Assembly: GCA_963749495.1 (NCBI GenBank)
Contig: CAVVMW010000005.1
Span: 320,001 to 384,000, forward strand
Direction of reading: 5' to 3'
Origin: an uncultured bacterium
Lineage (GTDB): Bacteria > Verrucomicrobiota > Verrucomicrobiia > Limisphaerales > UBA8199
DNA: 64,000 nucleotides
Within the stretch, counting starts at the first letter, position 1. Each line of letters begins with the position of its first letter. This document shows positions 2,040 to 58,625 of this stretch, piece after piece. The notes under the pieces were generated by a model. It worked only from the letters and a program-made list of their open reading frames with translations, made no database searches and was not told the DNA's origin. Both the position numbers and the translations under genes were made by a program.

Positions 2040-2336
2040 AACGGTAGGCAGGCGGATCTGGCCGCGAACGGTCCGCACCGCTTCGTCCTGGTCACGAATC
2101 GGCAGCGTGATCCACTCCTCCCAGGTCACCGGGCGGACCTTGGAAGTGCGGAGTGCAGAGTGCGGAGTGCGGAATGAATCGAACTCCAGATCGGGTAGAT
2201 CTTCGCGCTCGATTTCCAGGCCGGTGGCCACGTTGGTGGCCATCATGCAGAACGCCTCTTGAGGCGTGCGCACGTTGATGGCCTGCCAGTTGCGGTTCAG
2301 CACCAGCACGGTCGCTTTTGTCAATGTACTGCTCAT
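2040..2336 (-). pseudogene. HNH endonuclease (McrA-like) N-terminal part, truncated before the HNH motif, with in-frame heptamer-repeat insertion
   Basis: MSSTLTKATVLVLNRNWQAINVRTPQEAF...VRPVTWEEW...IRLPTV; the insert FRTPHSALRT comes from heptamer repeats at ~2145-2175. Confidence 0.75.
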
Positions 2337-2483
2337 AAAAAGGGGTCGAGGGTCGAGTGACGAGGACCGGAAGCGCGCTGCGGCCGAGCTTCCCTCGTGG
2401 CCCTTCATCTGCCCAAGGTGTTTGTTCTTTGTTGAGGGCCTTAGCCTTTAGCCTTCAGCCTTCAGCCTTTGGCCTTTGAAGCA

Positions 2484-2558
2484 TGGCTGCCTCGCCTGGA
2501 ATTGCACCAGGTCCTTCGGTTTCAGAGACCGACGCGCTCCTGATTACACCACGAGGCC
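2484..2558 (-). tRNA. tRNA-Gln(CTG)
   Basis: Cloverleaf; anticodon arm TCGGT-CTCTGAA-ACCGA; T-loop TGCAATT; encoded CCA. Confidence 0.9.
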
Positions 2559-2627
2559 CGCCGTCGCGCTTTGCGCTAAGGCGCGGCAAGCGATTGGCCC
2601 GCCGAGCCGTAGCCGGCAGGCGAAGGC

Positions 2628-2701
2628 TGGTCGCTCGGGAAGGTCCTGCCCCTCCGATTTCTGGGTGTAGGCCAGACGTGATGCTATTTCACCACCGAGC
2701 C
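2628..2701 (-). tRNA. tRNA-Val(TAC)
   Basis: TCTGG-CCTACAC-CCAGA; T-loop GGCAGGA; ACCA end. Confidence 0.85.
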
Positions 2702-2811
2702 TTTCGAATGCGGAACTCGGAATGCGGAGTGCGGAGTGCCAAACGAGAACGAAGGCTGCTTGTGCGCGCGCCCCCATTCCGCACTCTGCATTCCCCACTC
2801 CGCACTGGGAA

Positions 2812-2885
2812 TGGCTGCCTCGCTTGGATTCGCACCAAGATCATCGGGGTCAAAGCCCGGCATGCTGCCGTTACACCACGAGGCA
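2812..2885 (-). tRNA. tRNA-Gln(TTG)
   Basis: Acceptor TGCCTCG/CGAGGCA; loop CTTTGAC; GCCA end. Confidence 0.92.
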
Positions 2886-2993
2886 AGGAATCGGCCTGCC
2901 AAGCCGTAGCCCGGCACGTCACAAATGCTCGCCTCCGCACTAGCGTGCTTCGGCGCAGCAGCCCTCGCCACCCGTCGCGCGTGTGGCGAAGGC

Positions 2994-3070
2994 TGGTGGA
3001 GCCGGAGGTAGTTGCAACCTCACCAAACCCGATTAAAAGTCGGGTGCCGGTCTGCTGTGGCTTCGGATCC
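2994..3070 (-). tRNA. tRNA-Lys(TTT)
   Basis: CCCGA-CTTTTAA-TCGGG; GAGGT-TGCAACT-ACCTC; ACCA end. Confidence 0.88.
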
Positions 3071-3077
3071 AGGAAAA

Positions 3078-3162
3078 TGGTGGGCGAGAGAGGATTTGCA
3101 CCTCCAAGGCTCACAGACTCTCGATCTGTGGGGTCTGCTAATTCCCTCTGAACCACTCGCCC
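3078..3162 (-). tRNA. tRNA-Leu(GAG), atypical fold
   Basis: Acceptor GGGCGAG/CTCGCCC; ACAGA-TCGAGAG-TCTGT; extra GGTTCAG before D arm; short variable region GAGCCTT. Confidence 0.85.
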
Positions 3163-3171
3163 AAAGAAAAG

Positions 3172-3247
3172 TGGTGCTCCCGGCCGGAATCTCACCGGCA
3201 ACCTCAGCCTTCGGAGGGCCGCGCTCTGGTAATTGAGCTACAGGAGC
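3172..3247 (-). tRNA. tRNA-Arg(CCG)
   Basis: CGGCC-CTCCGAA-GGCTG; T-loop TGAGATT; ACCA end. Confidence 0.9.
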
Positions 3248-3343
3248 AGTCCTAATGTGGAATTCGGAATGCGGAGTGCGGAATAAGAATGTGCACAGGG
3301 CTCTGCACACTCCGCATTCCGCACTCTACACTCACCACTTGAA

Positions 3344-3414
3344 GGGGTCTCCTGCCGGTGCTGCCCCGGCCTGGCTTGTTTACAAAACGAGCCTGCAGGC
3401 TGCCGCAAGGAGAC
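3344..3414 (-). tRNA. tRNA-Thr(TGT), short D arm, no intact encoded CCA
   Basis: Acceptor GTCTCCT/AGGAGAC; loop TTTGTAA; GCCGG-GGCAGCA-CCGGC. Confidence 0.7.
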
Positions 3415-3452
3415 GAGATGGCCTGCCGAGCCGTAGCGCTCGGCGCGAAGGT

Positions 3453-3527
3453 TGGTCGCAATCCCCAGTGCTGCCCTGGGCACGGCTGGCTTATGAAACC
3501 GGCCTGAGCGCTAGCCCTTTCAAGTGC
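3453..3527 (-). pseudogene. tRNA(CAT), Met/Ile2-like, 5' acceptor strand lost or degenerate
   Basis: Loop TTCATAA, CCCAG-GGCAGCA-CTGGG, ACCA end; 5' end runs into a heptamer repeat. Confidence 0.6.
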
Positions 3528-3612
3528 AAAGTGGAGAATGCAAAGTGCGGAATGCACCGGGCGCGGGCGTAGCGATGATAATTCTGCACTCCGAATTCCG
3601 CATTCTGCACTG

Positions 3613-3652
3613 ATGGCGGGTGGGTCTGCTCTTCCCCGTGAACCACGCGCCG
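3613..3652 (-). pseudogene. 5' half of a fifth atypical tRNA-Leu
   Basis: CGGCGCG-TGGTTCACGGGGAAGAGCAGACCC matches the 5' halves of the four atypical Leu tRNAs; 3' half replaced by heptamer repeats. Confidence 0.65.
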
Positions 3653-3658
3653 AGAAGA

Positions 3659-3769
3659 TGGCGTCCCTGACCGGCTTCGCTCCCGCCTTCGCTGGAAAGC
3701 TACGGCGGGGCAGGCCGGTGATCTCCTGCATGAGAGGCAGGCATTTTGTCTGGACTACACCACAGGGAC
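3659..3769 (-). tRNA. tRNA-Glu(CTC) with 33-nt palindromic insertion in T arm (3682-3714)
   Basis: Acceptor GTCCCTG/CAGGGAC; CCTGC-CTCTCAT-GCAGG; ACCGG[insert]AGCGAAG-CCGGT. Confidence 0.88.
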
Positions 3770-3775
3770 TGAAAA

Positions 3776-3852
3776 TGGTGAGGGCAGGAGGCTTCGCACC
3801 CCCAACCTGATGCATGTGACGCATCCGCTCTGGCTGGCTGAGCTATGCCCTC
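3776..3852 (-). tRNA. tRNA-Val(CAC)
   Basis: GATGC-GTCACAT-GCATC; T-loop TGCGAAG; ACCA end. Confidence 0.9.
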
Positions 3853-3888
3853 AAAATGGCTCGCCGAGACGTAGCTCCGAGCGAAGGC

Positions 3889-3964
3889 TGGTGGGGGACG
3901 AAGAGTGCTGCCCTCTTTGCCTCTCGGATGTCAGACGAGCGCTCTCCTGGTGAGCTACGTCCCC
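3889..3964 (-). tRNA. tRNA-Val(GAC)
   Basis: Loop CTGACAT; AAGAG-GGCAGCA-CTCTT; ACCA end. Confidence 0.85.
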
Positions 3965-3970
3965 AACAAA

Positions 3971-4020
3971 TGGAGCGGGTGGACGGAGTCGCACCGTCGA
4001 CTCGGCCTTGGCACGGCCCT
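3971..4020 (-). pseudogene. 3' half of tRNA-Gly(GCC)
   Basis: GGCC-GTGCCAA-GGCC, GACGG-TGCGACT-CCGTC, CACCCGC-TCCA; 5' half absent, GIY-YIG gene abuts. Confidence 0.75.
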
Positions 4021-4030
4021 TGGAGATAAA

Positions 4031-4297
4031 CTAGCTCCCCAGGCTCTCCGCTCCGCCCCAGAAGTGTCGTTTTGCGAAGGCATGGCCGGACCCGCTCTTC
4101 AGGTATTTCTCGAAGTGCTGGGCCTGTTCAAGGGACTCGAACGCAACGTACACCTTGAGCGTCCAAGGTATGAACTTGGACGTGTGCGGACATTTACCGG
4201 CGTTATGGTCTGCCACTCGTTGACGGAGGTCTGCCGTATGACCGATGTACCTCTGGTCGCGGTGGCTCAAGCTCTGGATGACGTATGTGTAAAACAT
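4031..4297 (-). CDS. Small GIY-YIG nuclease
   Basis: MFYTYVIQS...RYIGHTADLRQRVADHNAG...PW.L..Y..F...A..FEKYLKSGSGHAF. Confidence 0.92.
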   Translation of the reverse strand: MFYTYVIQSLSHRDQRYIGHTADLRQRVADHNAGKCPHTSKFIPWTLKVYVAFESLEQAQHFEKYLKSGSGHAFAKRHFWGGAESLGS

Positions 4298-4680
4298 ATT
4301 GCGGCCTGCCATCCATAGCTTGGAACCCGTTCCGTGGAAAGTCCTCCTTCGCCGAGCCTACGGAGGACATCCTCCGTTTGGCCCCCTCGCCTGGCTCGGG
4401 TTCCGAGCGGAGGATGGTGTCCCCAGCCGATTAAATCCAGAACGAAGAATGCAAAGTGCAGAACGCCCCACTCCCTCGCCATTGTCGAAAACCCAAATCC
4501 ATTTTGCATTCTTCATTCTGAATTCTTCATTTCAAAGGGCGGCCTGGATTGCGGGTCCGGTTCCGCTCGCTGGGAAAGGAGGCCGTTTCCTGCTGCTTGT
4601 GCCGCCAGCGCAGGAACTTCTGAAACCGGGCAAAATTCGTTCGGAGCGAATTTTGATAGGTTTTGTCCTCGAAGAACAAA

Positions 4681-4768
4681 TGGCGGAATGCCGTGGACTT
4701 GCACCACTTGCCTGGAGGCACGCACTCGTTAGCACCGAGGCCCGGTTCGCTTGCCCGGTTGGCATTCC
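4681..4768 (-). tRNA. tRNA-Ser(GCT) with 8/4 acceptor/T-stem fold
   Basis: 8-bp acceptor GGAATGCC/GGCATTCC, G73-CCA, 4-bp T stem GTGG/CCAC, long V arm TGCCT-CC-AGGCA, loop GTGCTAA. Confidence 0.88.
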
Positions 4769-4808
4769 AGAAATGGCCTGCCGAGCCGAAGCTCGACAGA
4801 GCGAAGGC

Positions 4809-4892
4809 TGGTCGGCGTGGGGAGACTTGCGCTCCCAAGGCTGTTCGGGTTTGAGCCGAACCGGTCTGCTATTCCCGGTAAACCACACGCCG
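4809..4892 (-). tRNA. tRNA-Leu(CAA), atypical fold
   Basis: TTCGG-CTCAAAC-CCGAA; extra GGTTTA before D arm; variable region CAGCCTT. Confidence 0.88.
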
Positions 4893-4924
4893 GCCCGCCG
4901 AGCCGTGGCCCGGGGAGCGAAGGT

Positions 4925-5010
4925 TGGTCGGCGCCCCGGGACTTGCACCCGGAAGGCTCAGCGATTTTAAGTCGCTGGGGTCTGCTGATTCCCGCTGAAG
5001 CCAGGCGCCG
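4925..5010 (-). tRNA. tRNA-Leu(TAA), atypical fold
   Basis: AGCGA-CTTAAAA-TCGCT; extra GGCTTCAG; variable region GAGCCTT. Confidence 0.88.
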
Positions 5011-5123
5011 AGAAAATGGCCTGCCGGGTCGGAGTTCGGAGCGAGGGTCGGATGCCCGCCTACGCCTCAAAGGCAGGCTTCGGCGAGACAGTCTTCGTTC
5101 TCCGCTGCGCTCCGAACGAAGAC

Positions 5124-5207
5124 TGGTGGGCATGGAGGGACTTGCACCCCCAAGGCTGCCAGATTCTGAATCTGGACCCTCTGCTATTCGGGTTGAACCA
5201 CATGCCC
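5124..5207 (-). tRNA. tRNA-Leu(CAG), atypical fold
   Basis: CCAGA-TTCAGAA-TCTGG; extra GGTTCA; D stem ACCC/GGGT; variable region CAGCCTT. Confidence 0.88.
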
Positions 5208-5216
5208 AGTTGAAAT

Positions 5217-5292
5217 TGGTGCTCCCGGCAGGACTCTCACCTGCAACCGGCGGTTCGAAGCCGCCCGCTCTGATATTTTGAGCTACGGGAGC
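5217..5292 (-). tRNA. tRNA-Arg(TCG)
   Basis: GGCGG-CTTCGAA-CCGCC; T-loop TGAGAGT; ACCA end. Confidence 0.92.
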
Positions 5293-5378
5293 CCTCCAAA
5301 TGCAGAGTGCGGGATGCAGAGTGCAGAATGACGCCCTTCCGTTCTGCGTCCCCCATTTTGGATTATTCAGTTGAAAAT

Positions 5379-5825
5379 TGGGGCCGGTGGGGAGACTCGC
5401 ACTCCCGTGGTAACTGTTCAGGTGTTGGACCAGTGCTGGCTTCGACGCCAGCGCCGGGCCCAGCCAAGCCGTTGTCCCGGAGGGACAACCCGAGAATAGC
5501 CCGGCGCTTCAGCGCCGGGTCCGACGCCCTAAAAACCCCGCGTCCCGACAGGGACGCCTGAGGCTCAGCACCGCAAGAGGCCAGCCGATTCAGCCGTCCC
5601 TCCGGGACGGGCGGGAGATTAGACCGCTTTCCCCGGCGCTGAAGCGCCGGGCTATTTTCGGGCTGTCCCTTCGGGACAACGACGGCCCTCGAACCAGAGC
5701 GCGTCCCGAGAGGCCCCGGCGGCGATGTGGCAACCCATGTGCCGAGACCTGAACAGTTACCTCCCGTGGGACGAATTGCCCGGCAGTTTACGAAACTGCT
5801 GCTGTCGCTGCTGAGCCACGCCGGC
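5379..5825 (-). pseudogene. tRNA with anticodon CGT (Thr) and long variable arm, interrupted by a MITE
   Basis: Removing 5410-5760 plus one duplication copy restores GCAGT-TTCGTAA-ACTGC, V arm GGGC-AATTC-GTCC, GGGAG-TGCGAGT-CTCCC, CCCA end. Confidence 0.85.
5410..5760. mobile_element. Non-autonomous IS66-like MITE (351 bp) carrying nested REP-like palindromes
   Basis: Terminal inverted repeats GTAACTGTTCAGGT...ACCTGAACAGTTAC; 8-bp duplication CTCCCGTG at 5402-5409 and 5761-5768. Confidence 0.88.
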
Positions 5826-5933
5826 CTCCGAAATGCGGAATGCAGAGTGCGGAGTGCGGGATTGCACAGAGCCGTCACAACAACGCTTGTGCTCCTCATT
5901 CCGCACTCAGCACTCCGAACTCCGCACTGAAAA

Positions 5934-6007
5934 TGGTGGGTCGCCACGGTGCTGCCCCGTGCTCTGCGGTTTAAGAGACCGCTGCATCGCTGCAATGCTT
6001 GCAACCC
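5934..6007 (-). tRNA. tRNA-Lys(CTT)
   Basis: GCGGT-CTCTTAA-ACCGC; T-loop GGCAGCA; ACCA end. Confidence 0.9.
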
Positions 6008-6010
6008 AAC

Positions 6011-6085
6011 CGCGACACGAAGGCGGAGTTGAACCGCCGCAGCCAGATCTGTGAAGTCCTGGCCGGCACCGGTGTTCGCGTCGCG
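6011..6085 (-). ncRNA. tRNA-like element with 11-bp closing stem and canonical T arm, no CCA
   Basis: CGCGACGCGAA/TTCGTGTCGCG; GGCGG-TTCAACT-CCGCC; GCCAGG...TCTGGC arm. Confidence 0.65.
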
Positions 6086-6090
6086 TGAAA

Positions 6091-6165
6091 TGGAATCCCG
6101 TGTGAGAGTCGCACTCACCTGCGCGGTTTTGCAGACCGCTGCCTGGGCTGCTCGGCCAACGGGAC
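6091..6165 (-). tRNA. tRNA-Cys(GCA)
   Basis: GCGGT-CTGCAAA-ACCGC; U73-CCA; T-loop TGCGACT. Confidence 0.92.
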
Positions 6166-6273
6166 ATCTGAATGCGGAGTGCGGAGTGCGGAGTGCAGAG
6201 TGCAGAGTGCGCAATGTCTGCGGTGCTGCCCCTCAGGCATTCCGCATTCTGCACTCCGCACTCAGCATTTGGT

Positions 6274-6700
6274 TCACGCTGCCCGCACAAAGTCCGAGAT
6301 GACGGCTGGAACGCTGGTGTCGAAACCAACCACGTCCAGCATCCCGCGGTCGTTCGGGTCGGCCAGGGTGAAGCCACTTAAATGAAGAGTTAAGAATGCA
6401 GAATGAAGAACGGAGGACGCCCTCAGCCGCCGTTGGTCTTGATTCCTCATTGTGCATTCTTCATTCTGCATTCATGTGGGCCCAGACCATCGGCAGCGAG
6501 CAATCCGTGCCGCCCATCGGGATCGCACGGACCTTCTCGATGACGCTTTCCAGGCGCATTCGGGGCGAGAGGGCGACCCGGGTAATGCCTGACTCACCGC
6601 CACCCCGCTGGCCGCCGTGACCGCTGGCGGCTGCGCTGAAGGCGATGATCTCGCACTCGGGGTCGGTTGCCGCCGTCACCAGGGCCATGGCGATGGACAA
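6274..6700 (-). pseudogene. TROVE/Ro60 (Rsr-like) protein, C-terminal vWA fragments only
   Basis: AMALVTAATDP...LSPRMRL...PMGGTDCSLPMVWA and GFTLADPNDRGMLDVVGFDTSVPAVISDF, separated by a heptamer hairpin. Confidence 0.88.
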
Positions 6701-6702
6701 GT

Positions 6703-6820
6703 GGCGCCGTAGGGTGGGGATCTCCTTACGGGAATCGAACCCGTCCGGAACTTGAATCCGGGCGCTCTCCCATGGCGAGCGTCCTCCCCGTGCTGGAGGA
6801 TGACCTGCGGACTTCGGCCC
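6703..6820 (-). ncRNA. Candidate Y RNA-like (YrlA-type) RNA
   Basis: Directly upstream of the TROVE remnant; ends GGGCCGAAG...CTACGGCGCC; inner GGTCATCCT/AGGAGATCC; canonical T arm ACGGG-TTCGATT-CCCGT. Confidence 0.6.
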
Positions 6821-6828
6821 ATGCGAAT

Positions 6829-6936
6829 TGGTCAGGAAGCCGGGATTCGCACCCGGACCGTCCGCTTCACAGGCGGAGATGCTGTCCACCCTCCGCAGTG
6901 CTGCTACGGAGGACGGGCTGTTACACCACAATCCTG
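6829..6936 (-). tRNA. tRNA-His(GTG) with 33-nt palindromic insertion in D loop (6885-6917)
   Basis: TCCGC-CTGTGAA-GCGGA; removing the insert gives D arm GGTGTAACAGCAGCATC. Confidence 0.85.
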
Positions 6937-6941
6937 GAAAA

Positions 6942-7019
6942 TGGTGCCCCCAGGTGGACTCGCACCACGATCCTCCTGCTTCGCGGGCAGGCGTGCACAT
7001 TCTCTTACACCTTGGGGGC
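6942..7019 (-). tRNA. tRNA-Arg(GCG)
   Basis: Acceptor GCCCCCA/TGGGGGC; CCTGC-CCGCGAA-GCAGG; ACCA end. Confidence 0.85.
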
Positions 7020-7110
7020 CTTGGAAGTGCGGATTTCGGAGTGCGGAGTGCGAAATGGCTGACGATTCCGGTGCGCCTCATTCCGCATTCCGCATTCTGC
7101 ACTCTGCACT

Positions 7111-7191
7111 TGGAGCGTCCGTGGCCGGACTTGCACCGGCTATGCCCGGCTTGAAGGGCCGGCTGCTCGAGCCTGCTTTGCATTCACGGAC
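7111..7191 (-). tRNA. tRNA-Glu(TTC)
   Basis: Acceptor GTCCGTG/CACGGAC; CCGGC-CCTTCAA-GCCGG; 3' end G-CTCCA (irregular). Confidence 0.82.
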
Positions 7192-7323
7192 AAATTGTTC
7201 ACCGTGGAAGGCTGGAACCACGGGGATTTCTGAACTCAGAATGGAGAATGAAGAGTGCAGAATGTCGAACCCTGCTGGCTCATTCTGCACTTTGCATTCC
7301 CCACTCTGCATTTGAGAGGCGCG

Positions 7324-8467
7324 CTAACGCCGGAGCGCGCGCGTCTTGTAGGTGAGGAGCGGCCGGAAGGTGGCGATAACCGAGATGAGTCCGGCGTCCG
7401 CCAGGTCCTGGACCACGTCCTCGATGCTCTTGTAGGCGGCTGGGGCCTCTTCGTAGAGCAACTCGCGCGGCTCGCAGATGACTTGGCCCCCCAGCGGCGT
7501 TTGGGTCAACTGCTGCCGGCCAAACCGTTCGCGCATGCGCAGGCGGCTCTCACTCCGGGCCCGACCTGCGGCCGGCACCGTGGGCCAAAGACCAGGCGTG
7601 GCTGACGCCATCTCCAATGGGCTTCACGAGGTAACTGAGCGACCCGCGGGAGCCAGGGATCATCACCGGCTCCCGTTCGGCTGCCACGGCACCCTTCCGA
7701 TGCACCCAGACCGCTTCGCCAGGGCTGCCCCTCACCCCGTCCCTCTCCCCATCGGATGGGGAGAGGGTGGCCGCAAGGCCGGGTGAGGGGACGCGAGCGA
7801 TGCTGTTGTGGCAGCCGTCCCAGAGGCACTCGGCCTCCGCTCCCAGCGCCTCGACGAATCGTCGAGCGATGAGCGCCCGGTTTGTCTTGGCCCACCTCAG
7901 GGCCAAGTCATGGTCGCGGAGATAGCCCGCCGCAGCAAACGACTCGGGATCGGAGCCTTCGGCCTGATGCTCTTCCGCGTACGCCCGCAGGACCGATTCG
8001 CCCAGACCGCGCGAGCCGCTGTGGACCAGAACCACCAGTTGCTGTTTGCCCAGGCCCAACCGCCTGAATGCTGCTGCGTCCAAGACGGCCTCGACCTTCT
8101 GCAGTTCGGCGAAGTGATTGGCGCCGCCGATGGTCCCCAGCGCTTCATCGAACTCCGTGGATTCAAGCTCCGCTACGGCGAGAACCTCGCCCACATCGCC
8201 TTCCCACGGATGCTCCAGGTCAAAGCGAAGGTCGGCCCACCCGCCTACGCGCTCCGCGCTCCGGCGCGGCAGGTCTGTCTTGAACAGGGCCGTGCCGCAA
8301 CCGATGTCGCCGCCGATGAGGTGGGGATAAATGACGCCCTTGGTGACGAGGGCGGCGCCCACCGGGCTGCCCTTGCCCGGGTGCAGGTCCGGGAAACCGA
8401 CCGCCAGGCGTACACTTTCGAGTCGTGCCGCCGCATAAAGCTGGCGAACCGCTTCGCCTTCGATCAT
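7324..8467 (-). CDS. rtcB: RtcB-family RNA ligase (PrfH-coupled RtcB2 type), frameshift near 7560, in-frame palindrome insertion
   Basis: PDLHPGKGSPVG, GDIGCG, LGTIGGANHFAE, VHSGSRG, HN, HRKGA, IPGSRG, SLAHGAGR, EEAPAAYK, LLTYK motifs. Confidence 0.93.
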
Positions 8468-8585
8468 CTGCCTGCCCTCCGCAAAATGTAGAATGAAGAA
8501 TGCAGAATGAAGAATGCCCCGGATCACGCACCGCAGGGCGCGGACGGAGATTCTGCATTCTCCATTCTGCACTCTGCATTTGAAC

Positions 8586-8692
8586 TGGCTGCCAGGGTTG
8601 GACTCGCACCCGCCGTCGCTCGGAGCTATGGCGGGGCAGGCCAACACCTAACGGCTTAACAGGCCGCCGTGCTGCTTTGACACAACCTGGCA
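8586..8692 (-). tRNA. tRNA-Asn(GTT) with 32-nt palindromic insertion in T arm (8609-8640)
   Basis: Acceptor TGCCAGG/CCTGGCA; GCGGC-CTGTTAA-GCCGT; GTTGG[insert]TGCGAGT-CCAAC. Confidence 0.88.
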
Positions 8693-8694
8693 AT

Positions 8695-8752
8695 TGGCGC
8701 TGCCGGCAGGAGTTGCACCCGCATGAGTTCGTTTAGAAGACGAATGCCCCTT
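8695..8752 (-). pseudogene. tRNA-Arg(TCT), 5' portion missing
   Basis: TTCGT-CTTCTAA-ACGAA; GCGGG-TGCAACT-CCTGC; GCCA end; 5' part replaced by heptamer repeats. Confidence 0.75.
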
Positions 8753-8859
8753 CCAAGTGCAGAGTGAAGAGTGCAGAGTGCGGAATGCCGCGGTCGGGAG
8801 CGAGTGGCTCCAGCCTCTGGCCATTCTGCATTCCGCACTCCGCACTCCGCATTCAAGAA

Positions 8860-8948
8860 TGGTGGGAGGTGCTGGTAACGCTCCAGTCGTCGCTTCCGAC
8901 AGTTGTTTTTGACGCCGGTTTTACGGACCGGCAGTCGGAACACCTCCC
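8860..8948 (-). tRNA. tRNA-Tyr(GTA)-like, 8/4 fold, no local D arm
   Basis: GGGAGGTG/CACCTCCC-ACCA; GCCGGT-CCGTAAA-ACCGGC; CTGG-AGCGTTA-CCAG. Confidence 0.78.
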
Positions 8949-9065
8949 GAGATTGGCTTGCCGCGCCGTAGCTCGAAGCCGCGCGAATGCACGCGGGCGG
9001 TACGGCCCGCCTTCGCTTCGCTACGGCGCGGCAGCCTCGCTCTCAGACTGGCTTCGAGCGGAGGC

Positions 9066-9138
9066 TGGTAGCGGGGGTGGGAGTCGCGCCCACGAAGGCT
9101 GAGGTTATGGGCCTCGCCTGAATCTCATTCTCCCCGCA
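9066..9138 (-). tRNA. tRNA(CAT), initiator-like, minimal D arm
   Basis: TGCGGGG/CCCCGCT with 1:72 mismatch; loop CCCATAA; GTGGG-CGCGACT-CCCAC; ACCA end. Confidence 0.78.
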
Positions 9139-9144
9139 GTGAAA

Positions 9145-9244
9145 TGGCGAACAAAGAACAAACACCTCTTGCTACCTTGCGGTACCAACCCACGGTTTCA
9201 CGGTGGTTCTTTCGGTGTTTGGGGGCACACCTCCTGCGAAGCCC
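9145..9244 (-). ncRNA. Structured RNA ending in CCA at the head of the array
   Basis: AAACACC/GGTGTTT stem enclosing two hairpins, one with a GCAA tetraloop (TACC-GCAA-GGTA); 3' end GCCA. Confidence 0.45.
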
Positions 9245-9444
9245 ATTTGAATGTAGAATGAAGAGTGTAGAGTGAAGAATGCCGCACGAGCGGCTCCGGC
9301 TCTTTCGACGGGGCGCCCATTCTGCGCTCTGCATTCTGCGCTCTGCATTCGATTATGGTGACATCATCAAGACGTCGGTTTCTTTTCGTTCACAGTGCTT
9401 TGCCTTTCGTTGTCGAGTTTTGCTTCTTTCAGTGCTGCACGGGT

Positions 9445-49873: not shown

Positions 49874-49955
49874 ACACCAACTCCCCGGGCTTGGAACCGA
49901 CGCGCCGCATTCCCGCCCGCCATTCCTGACGAGCGTCACTCTGCGATTTATCGGC

Positions 49956-57582: not shown

Positions 57583-58625
57583 TTCATGGGAGTATGAATC
57601 CTCTTGCGCTACTTTGCGACCATCAAAACGAGGTTTCTTTGTGATCTCTGCGCTCTTTGCGGTTAAATCTGATAGGGGCTCTAAGGGATTTGGTCGGCAC
57701 AGGGATACTGCGGACGTCGGACATGACAGGGCTTGTGACCTGTCCGCCGCATTAACCGGGATCGCCGGCCACTCTGCGATTATGGGGTTGCCACGCTGGC
57801 CGGTTTCGGCACATTCAGGCCATGCGGAAGCGGGCTTATCTCGCCGCTGCCGCATTACAAGTCGCCCCTGATTCCTTGCGCGCTTGTCCTCTGCGATTCC
57901 TGCCCTGCTTCTTCTCGGCGAGCAGCTTGAAGGCGGCCAGATCGTCCTCGGTCAGACCCAGGGCAACCAGAGCTTGCGCACGGGTGATCGCCTGCGCCGA
58001 CATCTTGGGCTTGACCATCCGCACGGTGCCCGTGCTCTTGCGCATTTCGCCCAGATCAGGGATATACCCCTGCTGCGCGGCAGATTGCAGCCAGGCCGTG
58101 GCGAGGATCAGGCGGTTTGGCCAATCGATGGTTGACTGTATAGGACCCATTGGAGAAAACTCCGTCCGTATGCGCAAATCTAGGCCGAGACGGTGTATGA
58201 AATGGCGGAGGAGAATCACGTTCGTGCTACTGCTCTTGGGACTCAGCGCGCTGGCCAACTCGGCGTCGGCCAGTGCCGTTGGTCCCTCGGCCCAAGCCAC
58301 AGCCTCCGATAACGGGACGCTTCCCTGCAATTTGGCTATTTCAGCCCGGATTGGCCCAAGGGACTCGGGGACGGTTCGTTTGACCTGCTGGGCAACCCGC
58401 CCCAGATCCTTCAGTTCCCGGCGGCCAGCGTCATGTGGCTGCGCCAGGACGTGCAGGAAGCGGATTTGGTCGCCGAGTCGCTCTATGACCCCGAGAGCGT
58501 CTTCAGCCTGAGCGAGGACCGCAAACCCGTCCCTCTTGCGGCGTAACCGTTCACGGGTTTCGACGCACCGCTTGAGCACATGATCTGAGCAGGCCGTAGA
58601 TTTTGCTGGCGTCACGGAGCGGCCC

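Follow-up and report, generated by a model that had tools for sequence, protein, structure and literature searches.

The tRNA array and its interrupted genes

The window analysed here is a stretch of 64,000 nucleotides (G000:C5:320001-384000) from the genome of a soil verrucomicrobium (G000; 11.37 Mb, 63% GC, 31 contigs, 88% complete). It carries on its minus strand, at about 2480-9150, a dense run of tRNA genes in which the genes for tRNA-Glu(CTC), tRNA-Asn(GTT) and tRNA-His(GTG) are each interrupted by a hairpin of 32-33 nt. An earlier note on this DNA had offered two explanations for the hairpins: an element akin to REPs (repetitive extragenic palindromes), with a strong target preference, that inactivates tRNAs, or an intervening sequence excised at the RNA level, a ligase (RtcB) being encoded in the same operon. 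It had proposed as checks a genome-wide count of copies and flanks and a comparison of orthologous tRNAs, and had held that RNA excision would fail if no insert-free mature tRNA were found and the repeat were scattered genome-wide at GG sites.

ARAGORN calls five tRNAs in the run, and the Rfam tRNA model gives nine matches at its gathering score and 15 at E<=1; at least 15 Rfam matches, all on the minus strand, extend over 2487-8691. The array is one of about six paralogous, supernumerary arrays of the L-array type, a long and horizontally spread kind of tRNA gene array; they are shared between members of the Verrucomicrobiota and linked to rtcB and a GIY-YIG gene. The six arrays hold 55 of the 126 tRNAs that ARAGORN finds in the genome, and canonical genes with the same anticodons coexist with them. 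For the three interrupted species these canonical genes have TTCRA T loops and lie at C1:267160 for Glu(ctc), at C6:66144 and C30:29429 for Asn(gtt) and at C7:221563 for His(gtg). The array tRNAs carry a non-canonical T loop, TGCRA (for example at 2812-2885 and 3172-3247), and T loops of this type are also present in arrays of other Verrucomicrobiota metagenome-assembled genomes (MAGs). In the ARAGORN set, base 55 is G in 53 of the 55 tRNAs of the six arrays versus T in 59 of the 71 elsewhere; the array tRNAs form a lineage separate from the other tRNAs. Distribution among relatives is patchy: the array-type Asn region matches 20 of 60 relatives, a tally that includes matches to the inserted repeat alone, and only one of three genomes of the same genus. 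Arrays syntenic around rtcB recur in further MAGs of Verrucomicrobiota, as well as in one that bears the label Limnocylindrales, and the relatives of the array rtcB come from MAGs of Verrucomicrobiae and Limisphaerales.

With the inserts in place, ARAGORN calls none of the three interrupted genes. The Rfam tRNA model reads across the insert in Glu (32.0 bits, 3662-3769) and in Asn (21.3 bits, 8591-8691, below the gathering score) and recognises only the 3' part of His (6832-6895, 27.4 bits). The insert sequences quoted in the earlier note match the minus strand of 3682-3714, 8609-8640 and 6885-6917 exactly, and when they are excised in silico at these borders ARAGORN returns tRNA-Glu(ctc), tRNA-Asn(gtt) and tRNA-His(gtg), in agreement with the claim that exact removal restores the tRNAs. 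The calls tolerate a shift of the cut by -2 to +2 nt for Glu, by -2 to +3 nt for Asn and by every shift tried for His; altogether 28 of 34 test sequences were called, the six uncalled ones being the three intact forms and three shifted cuts. Alignment to insert-free paralogs places the Glu and Asn inserts, as the earlier note had it, after G53, the final base of the T stem, and before the base that opens the T loop (53/54), with a 2-nt GG ambiguity. The position of the His insert in the D loop also holds. All three inserts are predicted to fold as hairpins (Glu -16.0, Asn -14.6 and His -20.9 kcal/mol; z -2.45, -2.07 and -4.29). An Rfam search gave no match to any of them at E<=1, so the hairpin is not a curated RNA family.

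A dispersed family of hairpin repeats

The Glu and Asn hairpins are members of a repeat family with 76-79 copies in the genome, a total on which core motif, nhmmer profile, relaxed pattern and covariance model agree. This is far more than chance would give: the relaxed pattern finds 79 copies versus none in the reversed genome, the strict pattern 35 versus none for the reversed pattern, the nhmmer profile 66 matches at E<=1 and the covariance model, R1, 76 matches at E<=0.01. The His element (6885-6917) is not matched by R1, and its type has only three BLAST copies in the genome.

The family elements are 31-34 nt long. In copies of the CCTGCC type the 5' tail CCTGCC is followed by a stem of 6 bp, an internal loop conserved as GTA/GAA and a short stem-loop that varies; in the consensus fold the 6-bp stem leads to a 3x3 internal loop, GUA/GAA, and to a further stem of 3-4 bp whose tip is variable. 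The tetranucleotide GTAG (positions 12-15 of 33) is enclosed by the outer 6-bp stem and supplies one strand of the internal loop. The structure alignment holds 58 of 63 distinct sequences (8240-8273, 5055-5092 and three C28 variants were excluded), in which paired cells reach 86.8% versus at most 39% with the partner column slid. Two pairs covary (CG 30, AU 18; and UA 20, CG 18, GC 7, AU 3), in columns that are free or nearly free in the pattern by which the aligned copies were chosen and which fixes their core. The first loop position co-varies with the opposite base (G..A 44, A..C 8, A..A 3). This structure fits a recognition site on a folded single-stranded nucleic acid, DNA or RNA alike. 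The excluded sequence 8240-8273, within the rtcB coding sequence, matches the relaxed pattern and R1 (45.1 bits) with no change in length relative to the C4 paralog, and may be a chance resemblance or an old replacement.

The relaxed-pattern copies divide into 55 of the CCTGCC type and 24 of a CCTGTC type. Of the former, 42 lie inside the six array intervals, drawn by eye and covering about 32 kb in total of the 11.37 Mb; among the others, ten belong to a tandem repeat on C28, with a unit of about 120 nt, next to tRNA-Asp, and one is 277 nt from a tRNA-Arg. The CCTGTC type lies outside the arrays in 23 of its 24 copies, often as 31-nt tandem runs. Both orientations relative to tRNA transcription occur, and copies are also found far from any tRNA. 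The majority of the array copies are antisense and sit exactly between the discriminator base and CCA; eight ARAGORN tRNAs bear from one to seven copies each at this junction (18 in total), all on the opposite strand, and a tandem run of seven copies stands at C4:606977-607208. The T-arm copies (in Glu, in Asn on C5 and C21, and in a Leu-like gene at C4:602438) are all sense and have a common CCCCGCC stem. When tandem-run junctions are set aside, the preceding base is G in 44 of 59 cases (GG in 24) and the following base is T in 33 of 59. The count of copies and flanks thus returns a dispersed family, mainly after G, which is the genome-wide scatter at GG sites that the earlier note had named as counting against RNA excision.

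Beyond the source genome, the strict pattern finds copies in 14 of 60 relatives (0-7 per genome, controls 0), and R1 matches 41 of 150 other Verrucomicrobiota genomes. Six of seven copies inspected in relatives have non-tRNA contexts, and the seventh locus (L029), homologous to the C4 Leu-like gene, goes uncalled by ARAGORN; excision of the repeat copies at the seven loci gave 42 test sequences, none of which was called.

Two larger arrangements involve family members. At C28:18695-19820, ten tandem units, each with one ACTGCC-subtype hairpin, end 33 nt from the housekeeping tRNA-Asp(gtc), an arrangement that resembles tRNA-linked repeats. Copies of the CCTGTC type (C1:801142-801265, C10:53119-53305 and single copies elsewhere) have conserved outer flanks, GGCGCGACCTGA ... 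TCCTCCGCGTCT, and therefore may be the core of a larger composite element.

Filled and insert-free sites in DNA

Presence and absence of the insert at the same site are directly observed in DNA. BLAST within the genome finds an insert-free Glu paralog (C4:602536-602613), two insert-free Asn paralogs (C25:66687-66761 and C4:609231-609305) and a second filled Asn paralog (C21:707486-707592); in the empty Glu and Asn paralogs the flanks overlap by 2 nt (GG). Array-type Asn genes with abutting flanks and no insert occur in at least nine of 60 related genomes, and the Asn insert was seen in none of the 60 searched. Insert-free His orthologs lie beside rtcB in two other MAGs (L052:7409 and L049:3489). 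The 3'-end site at 2598-2630 is filled in six related genomes and empty in seven, with one genome, G034, counted in both.

Metagenomes add further alleles. For window positions 2400-9400, 24 runs are listed, all of them DNA metagenomes and none RNA, each with at most 0.08 of the words sampled from this stretch, and peat metagenome contigs were aligned to the window with likeness set at 88%. Such contigs skip the Glu insert, joining 3681 to 3715 (three contigs, two runs), the Asn insert, joining 8608 to 8641 (one contig), and the repeat at 4894-4927, joining 4891 to 4926 (five contigs, three runs). Elsewhere they have 3857-3893 swapped for five other letters and the repeat at 4777-4811 for four. 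The comparison of orthologous tRNAs thus yields insert-free forms in paralogs, in relatives and in metagenome DNA. Depth over the His element is about 350-400 in the peat metagenome contigs, which at 6883-6885 and 6917-6918 run out into dozens of loose ends that differ from one another; the element is therefore an abundant dispersed repeat in the peat habitat.

A T-arm junction pattern was found in three of 301 genomes of the order, a sample with only seven genomes from the family of the window: the source genome (four sites), G239 and G331. The four copies in G331 lie inside another repeat and not in tRNAs. The locus in G239 (L141; G239:C595:421-3448), from another family of the order, is what is left of a decayed array tRNA-Asn gene, with a hairpin inserted at 53/54; it is either an old filled allele that spread with the array or a second hit at that junction. 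At C15:357825-357950, the 3' part of a tRNA-His and its element are fused directly to an rtcB fragment, which suggests that array copies are rearranged with one another by way of the repeats.

The genome has canonical Glu, Asn and His genes elsewhere, as well as intact array paralogs, and the interrupted copies are therefore dispensable. They are most likely pseudogenes that have lost tRNA function. Excision of all repeat copies raises the ARAGORN count of the genome by only three.

A model for repeat insertion into spare tRNA genes

We regard the three hairpins as, in all likelihood, small palindromic repeats that have inserted into tRNA gene DNA, that is, as selfish-DNA damage and not as bacterial tRNA introns. 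The first proposal of the earlier note, that of a REP-like element which prefers certain targets and inactivates tRNAs, draws support from the dispersed family and from the insert-free DNA alleles, while inactivation itself we infer; this REP-like reading is essentially right, and it leaves the concentration on tRNA arrays unexplained. The repeats would spread in a transposition-like manner, probably through a single-stranded hairpin intermediate on which an enzyme would act. The element would land after G or GG and before T or A. At the T-arm junction of array tRNAs the sense strand reads GG followed by TGCGA, which would give sense inserts at 53/54, and a preference of this kind would account for the common site of the Glu and Asn inserts. 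On the strand complementary to the CCA end the junction reads TGG, which would give antisense inserts between discriminator and CCA, and these would leave both the tRNA body and the encoded CCA intact. As the element itself ends in (T)GG, each insertion would recreate its own target and tandem runs would follow, such as the seven copies on C4.

Several points weigh against this model. A loose preference for G before T cannot alone explain why 42 of 55 CCTGCC copies fall in 0.3% of the genome, and the intervals themselves were drawn by eye around clusters of ARAGORN tRNAs. The same rule is insufficient for the three tRNAs (Glu, Asn and the Leu-like gene at C4:602438) that were struck exactly at 53/54, in one orientation and by one CCCCGCC subtype. 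Filled sites are common to paralogous arrays, and whole-array duplication rather than new insertion may for this reason lie behind part of the enrichment. The metagenome joints have short flanks (21-51 nt), aligned with likeness set at 88%, and come from related organisms, not necessarily from the source strain. In the element GTAG is internal, within the 3x3 loop, whereas in REPs it is terminal. Finally, of the 24 loci with a Y1_Tnp domain (PF01797) in this 88% complete genome, none lies within 1.5 kb of a CCTGCC- or CCTGTC-type copy. A single His-type copy stands about 1.2 kb from one of these loci, inside another repeat. A REP-associated tyrosine transposase (RAYT) gene at C4:428195 (L004) was considered as the mobiliser of the family and rejected, being flanked by an unrelated 64-nt inverted repeat.

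Because the loose G-before-T rule falls short of the three hits at 53/54, we retain a further version of the model, doubtful as it is, in which the CCTGCC subtype is a miniature element that has specialised in tRNA genes. What it would recognise is the tRNA gene folded as a single strand, not a sequence word, and it would insert only at the T-stem/T-loop junction (sense) and between discriminator and CCA (antisense), where CCA is recreated so that copies could pile up in tandem without killing the host. A literature search turned up no account of a 33-nt repeat that targets tRNA genes by their structure, and nothing on point, judged by title and start of abstract, for REP insertions in tRNA genes or for small dispersed repeats with tRNA.

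Splicing and co-option as alternatives

Could the hairpins be intervening sequences after all? The pre-tRNA would then be cut at both junctions and the halves religated by the RtcB of the array, giving functional tRNAs in a bacterial analogue of archaeal tRNA splicing. The cloverleaves are indeed restored on exact removal, the minimum-energy fold of Glu with its insert keeps the acceptor, anticodon and T stems, and rtcB is co-regulated with an L-array in Anabaena (PMC8421152). The ligase gene that the earlier note placed in the same operon is real and on the same strand as the tRNAs, and its paralog in the C4 array is intact (490.9 bits), but the local copy is split into two frames as assembled. 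The same repeat, moreover, stands in both orientations, antisense at tRNA 3' ends and also at sites far from tRNAs, DNA alleles free of the insert are found in paralogs, relatives and metagenomes, and the interrupted genes are redundant. Minimum-energy folds of the Glu, Asn and His genes, which are thermodynamic predictions only, show no bulge-helix-bulge at the insert junctions; these lie at the base of a helix that the insert extends. The tRNA-splicing endonuclease domain PF01974 has no match in the genome, an absence not proven at 88% completeness, and none of four candidates scored, while the control search finds PF01974 in four archaea. Excision at the RNA level is thus unsupported, and we consider an RNA intron very unlikely.

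It is somewhat easier, yet still improbable, to picture the hairpins as modules of structured RNA or DNA that the arrays have co-opted, for instance for 3'-trailer processing, termination or protein binding, the T-arm and D-loop versions turning spare tRNAs into regulatory or decoy RNAs. Such a role would suit the conservation of the GTA/GAA internal loop across the phylum while stems and tips vary, with its co-variation of G..A and A..C, and also the concentration of the CCTGCC type in arrays, where some sites are common to several genera and where fragments of the RNA-quality-control gene rsr occur together with rtcB. Loop conservation would, however, be equally expected if a transposase recognised this site on single-stranded DNA. 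The elements are not constant in their orientation to tRNA transcription, no site examined is uniformly filled or uniformly empty across genomes, inspected copies outside this genome have unrelated contexts, and the tandem runs of up to seven identical units resemble amplification, not design. Insertion of a selfish repeat into spare tRNA genes remains the reading that we prefer.

Other genes and elements of the locus

The features of the array are collected in Table 1.

Table 1. Interrupted tRNA genes, hairpin repeats and protein-coding features of the array (window coordinates)
Feature	Position	Strand	Evidence
CCTGCC-type repeat, antisense, discriminator/CCA of tRNA 2631-2701	2598..2630	+	pattern and model R1
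CCTGCC-type repeat, antisense, 3' end of tRNA-like unit	3422..3455	+	pattern and model R1
Array-type tRNA-Glu(CTC) gene, T-arm interruption, probably a pseudogene	3659..3769	-	ARAGORN call only after excision; Rfam tRNA; insert-free paralog
33-nt hairpin repeat, CCTGCC type, between T-stem G53 and T loop, sense	3682..3714	-	model R1 46.5 bits, E 1.5e-6; fold; metagenome joint
Degenerate CCTGCC-type repeat, antisense, 3' end of tRNA 3893-3964	3860..3891	+	model R1 E 0.002
Small GIY-YIG nuclease-domain open reading frame (ORF) in the array	4031..4312	-	Pfam PF01541, E 4.4e-12
CCTGCC-type repeat, antisense, 3' end of tRNA-like unit	4777..4811	+	pattern and model R1
CCTGCC-type repeat, antisense, 3' end of tRNA-like unit	4894..4927	+	pattern and model R1
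C-terminal Rsr/Ro60 gene fragments split by a heptad-repeat hairpin	6277..6700	-	NCBIfam NF041674 positions 389-450 and 493-528 of 531; Pfam vWA_Ro60
Array-type tRNA-His(GTG) gene, D-loop interruption	6829..6936	-	ARAGORN after excision; insert-free orthologs
33-nt hairpin repeat, related but separate family (CCCGTCC...GTAGC...GGA, 13-bp stem)	6885..6917	-	fold; 3 BLAST copies
rtcB, release-factor-H-coupled type, two frames as assembled, in-frame palindromic insert near 7711-7799	7327..8466	-	NCBIfam PRK09588
Array-type tRNA-Asn(GTT) gene, interrupted at the same T-arm position as Glu	8586..8692	-	ARAGORN after excision; paralogs; relatives
32-nt hairpin repeat, CCTGCC type, ATAGC/GCGACG variant, T arm, sense	8609..8640	-	model R1 45.9 bits; fold; metagenome joint
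GCTGCC-subtype repeat in nested repeat cluster beyond the last tRNA-like unit	9006..9035	-	pattern and model R1

With PRK09588, whose cut-off is 407 bits, the local rtcB reaches 321 bits, and its matches to profile positions 14-299 and 296-375 fall in different ORFs. The 1-nt frame change, at about 7550-7617 as assembled, could be an assembly error. The palindromic insert in this gene is another, very abundant repeat, at which metagenome depth is 285-557; contigs without rtcB 7712-7798 have these 87 nt swapped for 27 other letters.

Long hairpins whose arms are 7-nt repeats (AGTGCGG or AATGCAG and their complements) separate groups of tRNA genes, at 8478-8582, 6168-6268, 3255-3335 and at least 11 further places in 2140-9350. 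Their predicted folds reach -43 to -59 kcal/mol (z -6.5 to -8.4), and one of them splits the Rsr fragment. Depth in the peat metagenome is high at 6144-6377. An element of 351 nt (5410-5760) lies in the T stem of the array tRNA-Thr(CGT) gene (5379-5825, minus strand); it has terminal inverted repeats of 13 nt and a target duplication of 8 bp, CTCCCGTG, and its excision restores the ARAGORN call of tRNA-Thr. Both Rfam Acido-Lenti-1 matches fall inside this element, so that this small RNA motif is here part of a miniature inverted-repeat transposable element. Far from the array, two matches to the Twister-P5 ribozyme exceed the gathering score on the minus strand (49885-49945 and 57727-57778; 43.0 and 53.1 bits).

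Implications

What does the array teach about tRNA genes in bacteria? The main value of the analysis is negative: an apparent bacterial tRNA intron with a ligase of its own is, on the model that we favour, selfish repeat DNA that breaks spare tRNA genes. Insertions of this kind would be an ordinary reason why tRNA counts in such genomes come out too low. The analysis also defines, with a model, a hairpin repeat that recurs across the phylum and conserves its GTA/GAA internal loop, and the subtype of this repeat that is nearly confined to tRNA arrays, with its tRNA-sparing insertion at the CCA junction, offers a convenient natural system in which to study target choice by tiny repeats. The systematic G55 T loop of the arrays merits separate attention.

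Comparison with known systems

The tRNA introns of archaea and eukaryotes form a bulge-helix-bulge that is cut by the EndA endonuclease, and RtcB serves as ligase. The interrupted genes of the array are like them in that short inserts occupy non-canonical positions, that removal restores the cloverleaf and that a ligase of the RtcB family is at hand. They differ in belonging to a bacterium, in the lack of any predicted bulge-helix-bulge and of an endonuclease gene in the 88% complete genome, in having insert-free alleles in DNA and in an insert sequence that is a dispersed repeat.

The likeness to REPs and to bacterial interspersed mosaic elements (BIMEs) is closer. In the part of the published account considered here (PMC3733652), REPs carry a GTAG tetranucleotide at one end of a palindrome, elements of this kind are abundant in the verrucomicrobium Opitutus terrae, where the families GTAG-18 and GTAG-19 encode inserts of only 7-8 residues, and REP/BIME elements are thought to be mobilised by RAYT transposases. 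Ours are likewise short, GC-rich, imperfect palindromes of about 30 nt with GTAG (31-34 nt, -14.6 to -20.9 kcal/mol, within the 20-40 bp of REP hairpins), and they are tandem or clustered, lie within genes and occur in tens of dispersed copies per genome, in numbers that vary between relatives. Besides the internal position of GTAG, they differ in that one subtype is nearly confined to tRNA arrays and that none of the 24 Y1_Tnp loci here is a RAYT gene flanked by copies (a REPtron). In its behaviour it is comparable to a REP or to some other miniature palindromic repeat. The element is thus REP-like but not a demonstrated member of a REP/RAYT system, and with GTAG-18/19 it was compared by description, not by consensus.

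For the array itself, the parallel is the L-array (PMC8421152, likewise as given in the part of the source considered), which is described as a set of supernumerary, patchily distributed tRNA genes with linked rtcB and nuclease genes and some pseudogenes, and for which Verrucomicrobia are among the phyla listed. The hairpin insertions and the G55 T loop are absent from that part of the account, and the linked endonuclease published there is of the HNH type, whereas the array has a GIY-YIG domain. The agreement extends to a same-strand array of many supernumerary tRNA genes, patchy across genomes, with pseudogenes among them and with an embedded rtcB (7327-8466) and a homing-type endonuclease gene, here the GIY-YIG ORF (4031-4312). 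In these respects the locus matches the published description of an L-array.

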